Shown here: piece after piece, positions 1 to 63,701 of the stretch | How the letters are laid out: every line of letters begins with the position of its first letter | How positions within the stretch are numbered: position 1 is the stretch's first letter | DNA from: an uncultured Chryseobacterium sp. | GTDB lineage: Bacteria > Bacteroidota > Bacteroidia > Flavobacteriales > Weeksellaceae | Assembly (NCBI GenBank): GCA_964588705.1 | Contig: CAZPQV010000003.1 | Span: 12,926 to 76,925 of the forward strand | Reading direction: 5' to 3' | DNA: 64,000 nucleotides | Program-made: the position numbers and the translations under genes | The notes under the pieces: generated by a model | Told to the model about the DNA's origin: nothing | The model's database searches: none | What the model saw: the letters and a program-made list of their open reading frames with translations, nothing else

Positions 1-28
1 CTGAAATCTGACGTCTAAAATCTGAAAA
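1..28. repeat. phased heptamer array, core CT(G/A)A
   Basis: CTGAAAT CTGACGT CTAAAAT CTGAAAA, ending 2 nt before the groL ATG. Confidence 0.7.
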
Positions 29-30
29 TT

Positions 31-1653
31 ATGGCAAAAGAAATAAAATTCGATATTGAATCAAGAGACGCCCTAAAAAGAGGTGTTGACGCTCTTGCAA
101 ACGCAGTAAAAGTAACTTTGGGACCTAAAGGTAGAAACGTAGTCATCGAAAAATCTTTCGGTGCACCTCATGTTACTAAAGACGGAGTTTCTGTAGCGAA
201 AGAAATCGAATTGGAAGACAAAGTGGAAAACATGGGAGCTCAAATGGTAAAAGAAGTAGCTTCCAAAACCAATGACATCGCAGGTGACGGAACCACTACC
301 GCAACCGTTTTGGCACAGGCAATCGTTCGCGAAGGTCTGAAAAACGTAGCAGCAGGTGCAAATCCAATGGATTTGAAAAGAGGAATCGACAAGGCAGTTT
401 CTGCCGTAGTTGAAAACCTGAAATCTCAGTCTCAGGAAGTAGGTGAAAATGCAGAAAAAATCAAGCAGGTAGCTTCAATTTCTGCCAACAACGACGACAC
501 TATTGGTGCATTGATTTCTGAGGCATTCGGAAAAGTAGGCAAAGAAGGTGTTATCACTGTTGAAGAAGCAAAAGGAACCGATACAACGGTTGATGTTGTC
601 GAAGGAATGCAGTTCGACAGAGGTTATCAGTCGCCGTATTTCGTGACCAATCCTGAAAAAATGGTTGCGGAACTGGAGAACCCGTACATCCTTTTAGTTG
701 AAAAGAAAATTTCTTCGATGAAAGAACTTCTTCCGGTTCTTGAGCCGGTTGCACAGGCAGGAAAATCACTTCTTATTATTTCTGAAGAAGTTGAGGGTGA
801 AGCACTTGCAACTTTAGTGGTAAACAAATTAAGAGGTTCGCTTAAGATCGCTGCTGTAAAAGCACCAGGTTTCGGCGACAGAAGAAAAGCAATGCTGGAA
901 GATATCGCTATTCTTACAGGCGGACAGGTAATTTCTGAAGAAAGAGGTTTCACCATGGAAAACGCTACTCTTGAAATGCTGGGTACTGCTGAAAAAATTA
1001 CCATCGATAAAGATAACACAACCATCGTAAACGGCGGTGGCGACGAAGCGCAGATCAAAGGTAGAGTAAACCAGATCAAAGCGCAGATGGAAACCACAAC
1101 TTCCGATTACGACAGAGAAAAACTTCAGGAAAGACTGGCAAAATTGGCAGGTGGAGTTGCAGTTCTTTACGTAGGTGCCGCTTCTGAAGTGGAAATGAAA
1201 GAGAAAAAAGACAGAGTTGATGACGCACTTCACGCAACCAGAGCTGCTGTTGAAGAAGGAATCGTTCCTGGTGGTGGTGTAGCGCTTGTTAGAAGTATCT
1301 CTAACCTAAACATCGAAGGAATCAACCCTGATGAAACTACCGGTATCAAAATCGTGAAAAGAGCGATTGAAGAACCACTTCGTCAAATCGTTGCCAACGC
1401 TGGTGGCGAAGGTTCTGTAATCGTTGCAAAAGTTGCCGACGGCAGCGGAGATTTCGGTTACAACGCGAAAAATGACGAGTACGTAAATATGTACGAAGCT
1501 GGAATTATCGACCCTACCAAAGTGGTACGTGTCGCACTTGAAAACGCTGCATCAGTTGCAGGAATGCTGTTGACTACCGAGTGTGTAGTAACAGAAATCA
1601 AGAAAGACGAACCTGCAATGCCGATGGGTGGTGGAATGCCGGGAATGATGTAA
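31..1653 (+). CDS. groL: chaperonin GroEL (Cpn60)
   Basis: 540-aa ORF with ATG at 31. Full-length Cpn60 blocks ([40 protein letters not shown]) and a Gly/Met C-terminal tail MGGGMPGMM. Confidence 0.98.
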
Positions 1654-1686
1654 GGAAGCTGGAAGCTGGAGGCGAGAAGCCCGAAG
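1652..1686. repeat. phased heptamer array, NNNGAAG class
   Basis: AAGGAAG CTGGAAG CTGGAGG CGAGAAG CCCGAAG, starting inside the groL stop codon. Confidence 0.8.
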
Positions 1687-1704
1687 TTTTAACCAATCAT
1701 AATA

Positions 1705-1737
1705 AAATCCGTTCAGAATTTTCTGGACGGATTTTTT
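1705..1737 (+). terminator. intrinsic terminator of groL
   Basis: 12-bp stem AAATCCGTTCAG/CTGGACGGATTT (one G-U pair), 6-nt loop, T-run. Confidence 0.85.
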
Positions 1738-1801
1738 ATTCCCCTCTTTTCAAGAGGTGTTGCCTCGTAACGAAGTGGAGAATACACGGAGTTCAACACT
1801 T

Positions 1802-1857
1802 CTCCCCAACTCTCCAACTCCCCAACTCTCCAACTCTCCAACTCCCCCACTCTCCGA
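1802..1857. repeat. octamer tandem array CTCYCCAA x7
   Basis: CTCCCCAA CTCTCCAA CTCCCCAA CTCTCCAA CTCTCCAA CTCCCCCA CTCTCCGA. Confidence 0.9.
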
Positions 1858-1938
1858 CCAAAAATCGGTCAGGGCTAAAGATTCTGTATTTCAATTTTAA
1901 CTTCCGTCCTGAAAAGACATCTATTAATAAACTCCTTT

Positions 1939-61817: not shown

Positions 61818-63461
61818 ATGAAATACATTATACTTGCGCTGATTTCGGCATTGCTGCTATCCATATCCTGGCCCACTTACGGCATCCCGTTTTTCATTTT
61901 TATTGCATTGGTTCCGCTTTTGATGGTGGAACACGAGATTACAAAGTTCTCGAAAATCAAAAGAAAAGGATTGGCGGTTTTTGGCATTTCATATCTGGTT
62001 TTCATCATTTGGAATATTGTCACCACCGGTTGGCTTTATGGATCTCAAAACCCGGACGGAAGTCCTGCATTGCTTGCTGTGGTCATTCCGGTTTTGGCGA
62101 ATTCAATGCTGTATTCCATCGTTTTTATGCTGTATCATTGGTATAAAAGAATTCAGGGAACGTATTGGGGGCTGGTTTTTTTCGTGGCAATTTGGATGGC
62201 TTTCGAAAAATTTCATTTGAGCTGGGAACTGACCTGGCCTTGGCTGAATCTCGGAAATGTGTTCTCCGAATATCCGAAAGTCATCCAGTGGTATGACACA
62301 CTTGGTGCAACCGGAGGAAGTTTCTGGATATTATTGATTAACGTATATGTTTTTTACACTGTAAGAATTTTTGAAGCCGGCAGAAAAAGAAAACCTTTAA
62401 TCATCAATTCCGTAGTGGTTCTTCTCGGGATTGCTTTGCCGATAATTATTTCTTTAATAAAGTATAGTTCTTTTGATGAAAAACCGTCCGGACAAGTAAA
62501 TGTTCTACTGCTTCAGCCTGACTTGGATCCTTACAACGAAAAATATCAGAAAGACAGCATTCAGATTCTCACCGAAATGTTGAATCTTGCCGAACAAAAT
62601 TCTCCTAAAGACGGAAGCGTAAAGATTGATTATTATATCGGTCCTGAAACTTCGGTTCCGGGGAGCGGTTCCATTTCAGAATCCGGATTTGAACATAGCT
62701 TATTATTAAATACGATTAAAAATTTTCTTTCCACAAAACCGAATTCTGTTTTTGCCACCGGAATTTCATCGCACCGCTTCTTTATGGACGGAAATAATGT
62801 TCCGAAAAACGCCTATCAAACAGCACAGGGATATTGGGTTGAAAGCTATAACTCAGCAGTTCAGTTAATTCCAAACCAGAACGTAGAAATTTATCACAAA
62901 GGGAAACTCGTTCCGGGAGTGGAAATTTTCCCATACATGAACACTTTAAAACCTCTTCTGGGAGATGCCATGCTCAATTTTGGCGGAACCATCGCATCTT
63001 TGGGAATCGATGAAGAAAGAAAAGTTTTTAGCAATCCGTATAACAAAGGAAAACTTGCGCCCATCATTTGTTACGAAAGCGTCTATGGCGAATTCACAAC
63101 CGAATATGTAAAGAAAGGCGCAAACTTTTTGGCCATCATGACCAATGACAGTTGGTGGGGTGTTACGCAGGGACACAAACAGTTGCTGTCTTACGCCAGA
63201 TTACGCGCCATCGAAACGCGCAGAGAAATTGCAAGATCTGCCAACAGCGGAATATCGGCACATATTAATGCCAAAGGCGATATAGAAAGTGATACTTTAT
63301 ATGGTGACGAAACTGCACTTTTCGCAAAAATAAATCTCTACGAAGGAGAAACCTTTTATGTGCAAGCCGGTGATTTACTCACTCGAATTTCGGTTTTCGT
63401 CTTAGGTTTTCTTATATTTTATACGTTGATCAAAAAGATTCAGAACAGAAGAAAGAAATAG
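61818..63461 (+). CDS. lnt: apolipoprotein N-acyltransferase
   Basis: 547 aa. Polytopic N-terminus, then a CN-hydrolase domain with PIICYES (catalytic Cys) and ARSANSGIS. Confidence 0.9.
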   Translation: MKYIILALISALLLSISWPTYGIPFFIFIALVPLLMVEHEITKFSKIKRKGLAVFGISYLVFIIWNIVTTGWLYGSQNPDGSPALLAVVIPVLANSMLYSIVFMLYHWYKRIQGTYWGLVFFVAIWMAFEKFHLSWELTWPWLNLGNVFSEYPKVIQWYDTLGATGGSFWILLINVYVFYTVRIFEAGRKRKPLIINSVVVLLGIALPIIISLIKYSSFDEKPSGQVNVLLLQPDLDPYNEKYQKDSIQILTEMLNLAEQNSPKDGSVKIDYYIGPETSVPGSGSISESGFEHSLLLNTIKNFLSTKPNSVFATGISSHRFFMDGNNVPKNAYQTAQGYWVESYNSAVQLIPNQNVEIYHKGKLVPGVEIFPYMNTLKPLLGDAMLNFGGTIASLGIDEERKVFSNPYNKGKLAPIICYESVYGEFTTEYVKKGANFLAIMTNDSWWGVTQGHKQLLSYARLRAIETRREIARSANSGISAHINAKGDIESDTLYGDETALFAKINLYEGETFYVQAGDLLTRISVFVLGFLIFYTLIKKIQNRRKK

Positions 63462-63471
63462 TTTTTTTTGA

Positions 63472-63513
63472 GCACGGAGTGCACAGAGTTCTACACAGAG
63501 GACACAGCGTTTA
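63472..63513. repeat. phased heptamer array, CACAG class
   Basis: GCACGGA GTGCACA GAGTTCT ACACAGA GGACACA GCGTTTA, after the lnt stop. Confidence 0.65.
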
Positions 63514-63553
63514 AGTAAATTAGTGCTGACAAATTATTGTGCAAAGAAAATAA

Positions 63554-63582
63554 TTGATTTTAAGAACCCTCTTTTCTTCGGA
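63554..63582 (+). repeat. direct repeat copy 1 (29 bp) preceding a CTTC array
   Basis: TTGATTTTAAGAACCCTCTTTTCTTCGGA. 27/29 identical to 63645-63673. Confidence 0.85.
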
Positions 63583-63631
63583 TATTCAACTTCGTGCTTC
63601 GTACTCCGTGCTTCCATCTTCTCGCTTCCCG
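63576..63631. repeat. phased heptamer array, CTTCNNN class (8 units)
   Basis: CTTCGGA TATTCAA CTTCGTG CTTCGTA CTCCGTG CTTCCAT CTTCTCG CTTCCCG. Confidence 0.9.
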
Positions 63632-63644
63632 CAAAATAAAATCA

Positions 63645-63673
63645 CTGATTTTCAGAACCCTCTTTTCTTCGGA
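63645..63673 (+). repeat. direct repeat copy 2 (29 bp) preceding a CTTC array
   Basis: CTGATTTTCAGAACCCTCTTTTCTTCGGA, offset 91 bp from copy 1. Confidence 0.85.
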
Positions 63674-63701
63674 CTTCGGACTCCCGTCTTCCAACTTTTC
63701 A
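63667..63701. repeat. phased heptamer array, CTTCNNN class (5 units)
   Basis: CTTCGGA CTTCGGA CTCCCGT CTTCCAA CTTTTCA. Confidence 0.85.

Follow-up and report, generated by a model that had tools for sequence, protein, structure and literature searches.

Coupling of intergenic heptamer arrays to S23p (PF05635) genes in an uncultured Chryseobacterium and across bacterial phyla

Introduction

The gaps between genes in a 64,000-nt stretch of DNA from an uncultured Chryseobacterium sp. (GenBank assembly GCA_964588705.1, contig CAZPQV010000003.1, positions 12,926 to 76,925 of the forward strand; hereafter the window) carry short tandem arrays of 7-nt units in which part of the unit stays constant. 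Here we show that such arrays are physically and evolutionarily coupled, across phyla, to genes for S23p, the PF05635 protein whose open reading frame (ORF) is found in the intervening sequences (IVS) of 23S rRNA genes, and that the arrays flanking these genes, which we call arms, share a core specific to the protein subfamily. With slightly more belief than doubt, we explain the arrays as a whole as the repeat arms of IVS-type S23p cassettes, or as the decayed and orphaned descendants of such arms.

To our knowledge, heptanucleotide repeats have been described in cyanobacteria since about 1990 without an accepted function, and the S23p ORF of the 23S IVS has been known since the early 1990s, with homopentameric homologues solved and its function unknown. 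The repeat class to which the arrays belong and the S23p/IVS kind to which the cassette belongs are already known. What appears to be new is the location of a cassette between protein genes, arms that are arrays with a degenerate core, and the coupling of heptamer arrays to PF05635 across phyla. No paper stating a general link between heptamer arrays and S23p was found in the literature searched, and it may have been described elsewhere.

An intact S23p cassette between protein genes

The window contains one S23p gene, which lies between two inverted heptamer arrays at the junction of a DUF3822 gene and rsmD:

8304..8338 (+): left arm, GTTGGAT GATGGAT GTTGGAT GCTCGAT GAC, core GGATG; begins on the stop codon of the DUF3822 gene
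8398..8751 (+): S23p gene, 117 aa, PF05635 (23S_rRNA_IVP) and TIGR02436; sole copy in the window
8757..8787 (+): right arm, CATCCCG CACCCAT CACCTAA CACCCAA C; inverted to the left arm, 6 nt past the S23p stop codon

The protein matches PF05635 at 2.9e-31 and TIGR02436 at 2.9e-30, and a tblastn search with 81 S23p queries found no second copy or remnant in the window, including beside the orphan arrays. Identity to the Chryseobacterium ortholog is 79%, compared with 75-76% for the housekeeping neighbours, and the codons that differ comprise 38 with synonymous changes only and 25 with nonsynonymous ones; where the ORF is retained, S23p is under purifying selection. Arms homologous to 8304-8338 occur at the same junction in the related loci L065, L077, L063 and L082, orthologs of the gene in Chryseobacterium and Kaistella are bracketed in the same way, and the same arm class recurs in 77 metagenome loci. 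As RNA, the two window arms are predicted to form a duplex of -29.2 kcal/mol, against -17.4 +/- 3.6 kcal/mol for shuffles, in the form of a chain of short helices.

An initial annotation of the window, made from its letters, had likened the arrays to binding sites for an oligomeric nucleic-acid-binding protein without seeing this gene. The idea gains a concrete candidate in S23p, a four-helix-bundle protein whose solved homologues are homopentameric rings and whose gene is flanked by arrays. The solved homologues 2rld and 2gsc in the PDB contain five chains each, and the Xanthomonas protein is a homopentameric toroid (PMC4990558). PF05635 proteins also resemble Avd in sequence and structure (PMC10053308).

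Arrays accompany S23p genes across phyla

Arrays were detected with a sliding window of 21 comparisons at lag p, a strict call being at least 15 matches. A metagenome scan gave 77 S23p loci, with both flanks available for 68 genes. A period-7 array lies within 130 nt upstream in 47/68, within 100 nt downstream in 47/68 and on both sides in 35/68; other periods score 0-2 at the same flanks, and background windows score in 15 of 1716 cases (0.9%), which makes the enrichment beside PF05635 genes roughly 75-fold. The flanks are inverted-complementary in 59 of the 68 homologues. Arm units take the form NNNGAWG (TTGGATG, TTGGAAG, TTAGAAG, ACCGAAG and others), and the arms, with a median length of 5.3-5.4 units as seen by a detector blind below 4 units, end about 28 nt before the start codon and resume about 14 nt past the stop.

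The S23p subfamily of the window type was found in 14 flanking-gene contexts with GAWG-class arms in nearly all of them. Because the GAWG core is kept across these contexts, the arms go with the gene and not with the site. GATG and GAAG versions of the arms form clades on the protein tree, with two to three switches in which both arms change together. Core positions are complementary between the two arms of one cassette in 88% of cases, compared with 74% to arms of other cassettes, whereas variable positions are not kept complementary (62% vs 59%). Predicted duplexes average -44.9 kcal/mol between own arms and -36.0 kcal/mol with arms of other cassettes. A core kept inverted beside variable positions that are not complementary fits recognition sites better than a plain stem. 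The view that cassette arms are perfect stems is ruled out by the same variable positions; it holds for some short-loop hairpins. The orphan units of the window (YNSGAAG, CTCGAAN, NNGAAAC) match arm classes of S23p cassettes elsewhere.

A tblastn search of plasmids found S23p homologues mainly in Nostocales. Of the 14 regions inspected, 12 show period-7 arrays to one or both sides of the gene: Nostoc (three records), Anabaena, Calothrix, Geminocystis, Stanieria, Aulosira, Pseudanabaena, Riemerella, Bernardetia and Azospirillum. The other two, L165 (a Picosynechococcus PCC 7003 plasmid) and L175 (a Gemmatirosa kalamazoonensis plasmid), have arms of period 8, so spacing is not strictly fixed across the family. 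The Azospirillum lipoferum copy lies inside a 23S rRNA gene, with 7-periodic inverted arms, and is therefore a classical IVS. When the S23p alignment was used in a large protein search, the only hits were to close Chryseobacterium relatives, and the taxonomic range was not widened. In the Coxiella IVS, 2-3 tandem heptameric repeats, whose number varies between strains, stand upstream of the S23p ORF (Warrier et al., PMC4990558); the 5' RNase III site lies at the first of them, and the inverted repeats that border 23S IVS form a stem cut by RNase III (PMC4990558).

Three of the plasmid cassettes, in L165, L166 (Anabaena sp. 90 pANA02) and L167 (a Pseudanabaena galeata plasmid), sit inside cas operons (cas10-cmr3; cas6-cas4). 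Associations recorded as 'CRISPR-linked 23S rRNA IVP' may for this reason represent insertion of cassettes at operon junctions and not a shared function.

Decay and turnover at orthologous junctions

The RluD encoded in the window has a best match of 86% among 185,579 species representatives (GTDB). We sampled 80 loci (1.55 Mb) from as many related species of Weeksellaceae, namely Chryseobacterium, Kaistella, Epilithonimonas, Elizabethkingia, Cloacibacterium and relatives. These contain 259 period-7 regions where 30 are expected, and 210 period-14 regions where 29 are expected. Units vary widely (TAACTTC, ACTCATT, TAATGGG, GCCAAGA, CATCCAA and others), and some arrays reach at least 10 units. 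All intact S23p ORFs in the 1.6 Mb lie at DUF3822-rsmD or coaD-glyT and all are flanked by inverted arrays; of the 31 S23p-like segments in the window and the 80 loci, 29 have an array within 200 nt.

Both junctions preserve stages of loss. At DUF3822-rsmD the cassette is complete in some species, while its ORF is internally deleted in L082 and present as a fragment in L068; most Chryseobacterium have an ORF-less hairpin whose right arm is recognisably homologous to that of the cassette. At coaD-glyT about 25 species carry a PF05635 ORF of ~350 nt between inverted (GTAATGA)n and (TCATTAC)n arms, while in others the element is shortened to (GATAAnn)n-loop-(nnTTATC)n or its ORF is partly deleted. 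Cassettes decay at these two junctions from the full form through an internally deleted ORF to a hairpin or a single arm. Two features of the window are pertinent here:

16207..16234 (+): orphan array, putative relic right arm, ATCATTT ATCGCTC ATCACTT ATCGCTT, between coaD and the next gene
45323..45382: ORF-less hairpin between aceB and aceA, abutting inverted arms GATTCGA GATTCGT GGTGCGG GATACGA / ...CCGTATCCCGTAACTCGA

By its position and units, the first appears to be the relic right arm of a second S23p cassette, of a second subfamily, that is intact in many relatives. For the second, folding predicts an 11-bp central stem, a minimum free energy of -21.4 kcal/mol and an arm duplex at z = -3.2.

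Inverted pairing is frequent: of the 226 arrays in all loci, 72 (32%) are matched by an inverted array no more than 700 nt away and 13 by a direct one, compared with 4-7 in column-permuted controls. The distance between arms has two modes, 10-60 nt and 300-500 nt, and arms of short-loop hairpins can pair through their variable positions as well (17/17 in GATAAATGATAATTGAT). The initial annotation had missed this pairing of arrays around a short loop or a small gene.

Elsewhere, comparison of orthologous junctions reveals that position can persist while the unit turns over, and that new arrays also arise. Downstream of folA most Chryseobacterium species have an array, in some with an inverted partner, built of units such as TTAGAAG/CTAGAGG, GGTTTAA or GGTTGAT and not the window's NNGGAAG. 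At hemW-murI many Chryseobacterium have a hairpin with heptamer arms, (TTGGATG CTTGAAG ...)-loop-(... CTTCCAG CTTCTAA). The porP-hemW junction holds a plain terminator hairpin in most relatives, with unrelated arrays in Kaistella and two others, so the window's array there is a lineage-specific gain. Over shorter distances the arrays are stable: those at 16207-16234, 17886-17913 and 11397-11449 are identical in up to five metagenome contigs of the same species (the last in L001) and hence are not hypervariable. No strain-level variation in copy number was seen at these three arrays in at most five contigs, a small sample of strains that are perhaps nearly clonal.

The period-7 signal in the window

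The window was compared with 30 first-order Markov shuffles. At the strict call it has 16 period-7 regions against 1.4 +/- 1.0 expected; at least 16/21 matches leaves 9 against 0.1, and at least 14/21 gives 22 against 5.2. The phased arrays noticed in the initial annotation are real, and the count of at least 18 tracts given there depends on the threshold, which here gives 16 to 22. Other periods from 4 to 13 show no comparable excess over shuffles in the window and, at the strictest thresholds, stay close to the expected numbers; laxer ones give a mild excess at periods 9 and 12, as expected from codon structure, and period 14 is 2 x 7. None of the 16 strict regions falls in coding sequence, although such sequence makes up 91.6% of the window (8.4% non-coding); of the 22 lax ones, 19 are non-coding. 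Tandem Repeats Finder independently reports period-7 rows at 11 sites in the window, with match levels of 77-100% and four perfect copies only at 11397-11424.

These results rule out chance or composition as the source of the arrays. An artefact of coding periodicity is likewise ruled out, since the periods at which codons have an effect are 6, 9 and 12 and do not include 7, and since the arrays lie outside coding DNA. A scan for sigma-70 promoters and terminators was uninformative for a Bacteroidetes genome. A known RNA family was also considered: Rfam matched no array, and its single match in the window at the gathering threshold was Flavo-1 (RF01705; 58635-58699, +, 49.6 bits), which lies in a gap of 226 nt ahead of the gene at 58767.

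Most arrays conserve 4-5 of their 7 columns. The 4-mers repeated at lag 7 include CTTC/GAAG 21 times (0-9 at other lags) and CGAA/TTCG 16 times. The fixed core with a variable triplet described at the outset stands as a significant and modest effect, with 547 invariant columns within single arrays against 492 +/- 10 under a null corrected for ascertainment; the 'variable' positions of GAAG units are themselves non-random, the pattern YNSGAAG being common to at least seven sites. Of the several core classes that had been distinguished, some merge into one purine-rich group, as GAGATTC reads CTCGAAT on the opposite strand, close to CTCGAAG. Orientation relative to transcription is indeed variable, arrays adjoin stops, starts and promoter motifs within a few nt, and every tract cited in the initial annotation reads as it had been described there, save that the eight units at 63576-63631 are in phase with an exact CTTC in only six.

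Inventory of the remaining arrays

The remaining arrays of the window are listed below. The names of the adjoining genes given initially (groL, fdhD, aceB/aceA, queD/lpxH, folA, porP/hemW, hemW/murI) were confirmed by NCBIfam and Pfam.

1..28: CTGAAAT class, CTGAAAT CTGACGT CTAAAAT CTGAAAA; immediately ahead of groL, truncated at the window edge; 14/21 matches, lax threshold only
1654..1688: orphan, GAAG class, GGAAGCT GGAAGCT GGAGGCG AGAAGCC CGAAGTT; starts on the base after the groL stop codon
1802..1855: period-8 array (octamer variant), CTCTCCAA x 6.8; downstream of the groL terminator
4582..4621: CTCGAAN class, GGAGTTT TGAATTT CGAGTTT CGGGTTT CGAGCTT CGAGCTC (NNCGAAR as the gene strand reads); 33 nt ahead of an msbA-like start codon
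10249..10263: short CTGAAAT class, TGAAATC TGAAATC T; between hemW and the murI promoter motif
11397..11449: CTCGAAN class, seven units, ATTCGAG x4 and variants (CTCGAAT as the gene strand reads); takes up the porP-hemW gap, overlapping the start codon of hemW (ATG, 11398)
17886..17913: orphan, GAAG class, TAGGAAG AGGGAAG CAGGAAG CGCGAAG; between the folA stop and the next gene's promoter motif
38071..38145: GTTTC-class arrays between lpxH and queD, GTTTCAA GTTTCAG GTTTCTA GTTTCAT, a short CCGAAAATTCGG palindrome, then AGGTTTC AAATTTC ATATTGC TTGTTTC
38146..38174: CTTC class, CTTCGTG CTGCGAG CTTCAAA CTTCGAG CTTT; ends 1 nt before the queD stop codon
38640..38674: GAAG class, GGTGAAG CGCGAAG TTGGAAG ATGGAAG CCCGAAG; 22 nt ahead of the start codon of queD (38618)
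54592..54623: orphan, GAAG class, CTGGAAG CCGGAGA CACGAAG CTTGAAG CC; 3 nt past the murA stop; read directly from the sequence, below the strict threshold
57627..57654: orphan, GAAG class, ATGGAAG TTCGAAG CTCGAAG CACGGAG; starts on the first base past the fdhD stop; 42 nt separate it from the start codon of DUF7009 (57696)
63576..63631: orphan, CTTC class, eight units; after lnt, upstream of the rpmB promoter region
63667..63698: second orphan, CTTC class, CTTCGGA CTTCGGA CTCCCGT CTTCCAA CTTT

The housekeeping gene queD is tightly bracketed by inverted GAAG/CTTC arrays whose polarity is opposite to that of S23p cassettes. The two arrays (38146-38174 and 38640-38674), some 470 nt apart, match inverted at 17/21 positions and are predicted to form a duplex of -28.3 kcal/mol, against -14.3 +/- 3.2 kcal/mol for shuffles. 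On the other strand the unit of the neighbouring array at 38071-38145 reads NNGAAAC, which is also the arm unit of a distant S23p homologue (L161). For the groL 3' GGAAG array (1654-1688), pairing with the CTCTCCAA array was tried and rejected, the predicted duplex being no better than shuffles.

A direct repeat of ~30 nt, TGATTTTMAGAACCCTCTTTTCTTCGGA, occurs twice (63547-63575 and 63640-63668). Both copies run into a CTTC heptamer array, a pattern suggestive of a duplicated leader-plus-array unit. TAnnTTTG motifs, conserved across ~50 species and taken by us to be promoter motifs of the Bacteroidetes type, adjoin arrays at 17867-17874 and 10225-10232 (- strand). Many array-bearing junctions had been described as looking co-transcribed; with this motif beside the array, co-transcription is not established for at least two of them, folA-next gene and hemW-murI, both of which probably have internal promoters.

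Other repeats of the window stand apart from the heptamers. A period-10 array at 34237-34276, TCAAACnnnn x4, is also of the core-plus-variable style. A hairpin motif, GCCACGAAT...ATTCGTGGC, recurs at four intergenic sites (~29030-29060, 32100-32125, 34320-34345, 60170-60205) and may be a dispersed family of terminator-like repeats or of repeats like the repetitive extragenic palindromes (REP). A gene resembling IS200/Y1 transposases and REP-associated tyrosine transposases (RAYT) at 4769-5236 (-) is flanked by GC-rich hairpins, GTCGCGGAGCGAC and GCGCCAGAGGCGC (~4690-4760, 5300-5370), which are unrelated to the heptamer arrays; together they may form a REP/RAYT unit.

Comparison with known systems

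The closest relatives of the window cassette are the 23S IVS of Coxiella burnetii and Leptospira, which encode the same PF05635 family in an element of similar size (~430-500 nt) with the ORF within inverted repeats. A PF05635 ORF, bracketing inverted repeats and adjoining tandem heptamers occur together in the window at 8304-8787 only. IVS lie in helix 9, 25 or 45 of 23S rRNA, whereas the window cassette lies between protein genes, and among the homologues only the Azospirillum copy is in 23S rRNA. The IVS stem is a near-perfect 28 bp, whereas arms of the window type are longer, being degenerate arrays in which it is mostly the cores that pair. Unlike 23S IVS, most arrays here have lost an ORF or never had one, and S23p, under purifying selection here, is probably unexpressed in Coxiella.

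STRR is the name given to cyanobacterial heptanucleotide repeats. Together with the heptanucleotide long simple sequence repeats (LSSRs) of prokaryotes they consist of tandem 7-nt units, form several families per genome and are intergenic and of unknown function; the window arrays share with them at least three head-to-tail copies above chance and the preference for non-coding DNA, but at 4-8 units they are shorter, and they are more degenerate while keeping a core conserved. TAACTGA direct repeats occur in Beggiatoaceae, Cyanobacteria and a few Bacteroidetes (MacGregor 2015, PMC4679880), and other heptamer repeats in intergenic regions of Gramella and Aequorivita (PMC4679880). The TAACTGA repeats are, like the arrays here, intergenic heptamers that often lie a few nt from start codons, in overlapping phyla. 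They differ in having a single exact unit in a consistent forward orientation upstream of starts, where our arrays have many classes, both orientations and inverted pairing, and the study (PMC4679880) did not examine a link to S23p. The initial annotation knew of no described function or name for the arrays and so overlooked the LSSRs, STRR, TAACTGA repeats and Coxiella IVS repeats.

It had also invoked TRAP and HutP, with which the arrays share the concept of a ring homo-oligomer that reads one short core per subunit between spacers that vary. TRAP binds GAG/UAG triplets 2-3 nt apart and HutP binds UAG repeats at ~4-nt spacing, each in the leader of a regulated operon. With a period of 7 instead of ~5 nt, with cores such as GAAG, GGATG and CGAA, and with many unrelated junctions in both orientations, the arrays are not supported as members of these systems, and the likeness is one of analogy. 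Profile scanning of the proteins of the 64-kb window found no mtrB or hutP, no dedicated search having been made.

Avd, the accessory protein of diversity-generating retroelements (DGRs), forms a pentameric barrel of four-helix bundles and binds both nucleic acid and reverse transcriptase. No reverse transcriptase, template or variable repeat lies near the window cassette, and we know of no heptamer arrays in DGRs. REP and bacterial interspersed mosaic elements (BIME) are also short, intergenic, often located between co-directional genes, hairpin-forming and able to affect mRNA. REP are dispersed, near-identical imperfect palindromes of 20-40 nt, whereas the arrays are tandem heptamers that differ between sites, and single arrays in the window are not palindromic.

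A hypothesis for the origin of the arrays

An intact cassette is composed of about 4-9 NNNGAWG units, ~28 nt, the S23p ORF, ~14 nt, and inverted heptamers CWTCNNN. Loss of the ORF would leave a hairpin, as may be the case at 45323-45382, or a single array, as at 16207-16234; slippage would alter the number of units and, combined with ORF loss, would yield the ~20 arrays of the window. The arrays would be transcribed with their neighbours, and paired arms would form a stem, interrupted and held through the cores, that leaves the insert as a loop and is a probable target of RNase III, by analogy with the 23S rRNA IVS. Cores at a fixed 7-nt phase would be probable contacts of an S23p pentamer, one core per subunit.

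A bolder form of this hypothesis is that S23p reads heptamers sequence-specifically, with one subunit per 7-nt unit, in a cis/trans system that spans phyla. We regard it as tentative and rather less probable than not. If it held, it would explain cyanobacterial STRR, the Flavobacteriia arrays and the architecture of the 23S IVS at once; orphan arrays at operon junctions would be trans sites for S23p control of RNA processing or expression, and Avd would be a derived relative in the same family of nucleic-acid readers.

Several points count against the descent of the arrays from S23p cassettes. In the window and related loci, 78% of arrays lie more than 200 nt from recognisable S23p sequence, so we infer, and do not observe, that the orphans belong to the S23p system, as relics or as trans sites. 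The window's orphan arrays lack adjacent S23p remnants, and at most sites descent is argued from the similarity of units. Some arrays appear young and locally expanded, such as GAGATTC x4 where relatives have a terminator, a state that slippage by itself can generate. The part of the hypothesis that concerns a stem and RNase III is weakened because variable positions pair at 62% vs 59%, stems are interrupted and z is about -3. An arm length of about five units cannot be used as evidence for a pentamer, given the detector's lower limit. In L167 the arms, ~17x CTAAAAG upstream and ~10x CCAAAAG downstream, in the ~140 nt to each side of the ORF (392-751), are direct and not inverted. Finally, S23p probably goes unexpressed in Coxiella, according to the conclusion of the study of its IVS (PMC4990558).

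One alternative is that orphan arrays are ordinary heptanucleotide simple sequence repeats (SSRs), made by slippage, eroded by mutation, functionless and independent of S23p, with cassette arms being one place where they accumulate. Heptanucleotides are the commonest long SSR class in many prokaryotes, with slippage as the explanation, according to the summary of Mrazek 2007 in PMC4679880, and Coxiella strains differ in repeat number (PMC4990558). Near-perfect young arrays exist, both GAGATTC x4 and those of at least 10 units in relatives; units turn over between species at the same junction; the excess at period 14 points to duplication of double units; over-dispersion of columns inside arrays is only modest; and most arrays have no S23p nearby. 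We nevertheless consider this account unlikely, if worth serious attention, because it does not predict the enrichment beside PF05635 genes, inverted pairing in a third of arrays, a GAWG core that follows one subfamily through 14 contexts, or the joint switching of arms. YNSGAAG at seven or more sites in the window is unlike local seeding, arrays persist at orthologous junctions across a genus, and identity among same-species contigs speaks against hypervariability. The initial view that the arrays are more than plain slippage microsatellites is upheld to the extent that slippage does not fully explain them. A somewhat less probable alternative is that the arrays act purely as RNA structure, in the manner of REP/BIME, their stems stabilising, processing or insulating transcripts, with the heptamer period a by-product of slippage and only those positions that pair in any register, the core, staying complementary. 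The RNase III-cut stems that border 23S IVS (PMC4990558), the short-loop hairpins that also pair through variable positions, the greater stability of own-arm duplexes and the persistence of hairpins after ORF loss all agree with it. Yet most window arrays have no partner, single arrays vary in orientation relative to transcription, and cassette stems are chains of 2-5 bp helices whose variable positions are not kept complementary; pairing alone also leaves unexplained why the unit is 7 nt in every phylum and why a core follows a subfamily.

The breadth of contexts occupied by a single S23p subfamily with its arms raises a further alternative, in which the cassettes are transposon-type DNA elements similar to miniature inverted-repeat transposable elements, the arrays are subterminal sites for a transposase acting in trans, and no RNA role exists. 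Their inverted terminal architecture with repeated subterminal motifs resembles some transposon ends, and there have been lineage-specific gains at porP-hemW. Early authors proposed that IVS are mobile and that the ORF is needed for it (PMC4990558), and ancient mobility of the cassettes is evident. This explanation is nonetheless improbable, as no transposase is linked to the cassettes, the hairpins of the window's IS200/RAYT-like gene are different and GC-rich, cassettes have been inherited vertically for long periods at fixed junctions, and the window copies are not near-identical in the way recent transposition would leave them. More improbable still is that the arrays are operator-like sites through which another oligomeric binder (TRAP-like, HutP-like or a cold-shock protein) regulates adjacent genes. 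The constant core at a fixed phase and the closeness of arrays to stops, starts and promoter motifs speak for such a binder, and CspB has been reported to bind heptamer units, one protein per unit (PMC4679880). Against it, the core changes from array to array and, at one and the same junction, from species to species, the arrays have no consistent orientation to the mRNA, the neighbours are functionally unrelated housekeeping genes, the triplets at ~5-nt spacing in a single leader that mark TRAP/HutP sites are not seen, and the strong specific association is with S23p.

Implications

The explanation of the arrays as arms of S23p cassettes and their descendants joins two puzzles, as heptamer repeats and S23p co-occur in Bacteroidota, Cyanobacteriota and Alphaproteobacteria and had been noted together in Coxiella (PMC4990558). 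The two would become one question: whether a pentamer binds four to six phased cores, and what this does to the transcript. There are also consequences for annotation, in that PF05635 genes recorded as 'associated' with cas operons or other systems may be cassettes inserted at junctions, and degenerate heptamer arrays can mark former cassette sites. If it is true that S23p reads heptamers, the system could show how Avd handles RNA in diversity-generating retroelements.

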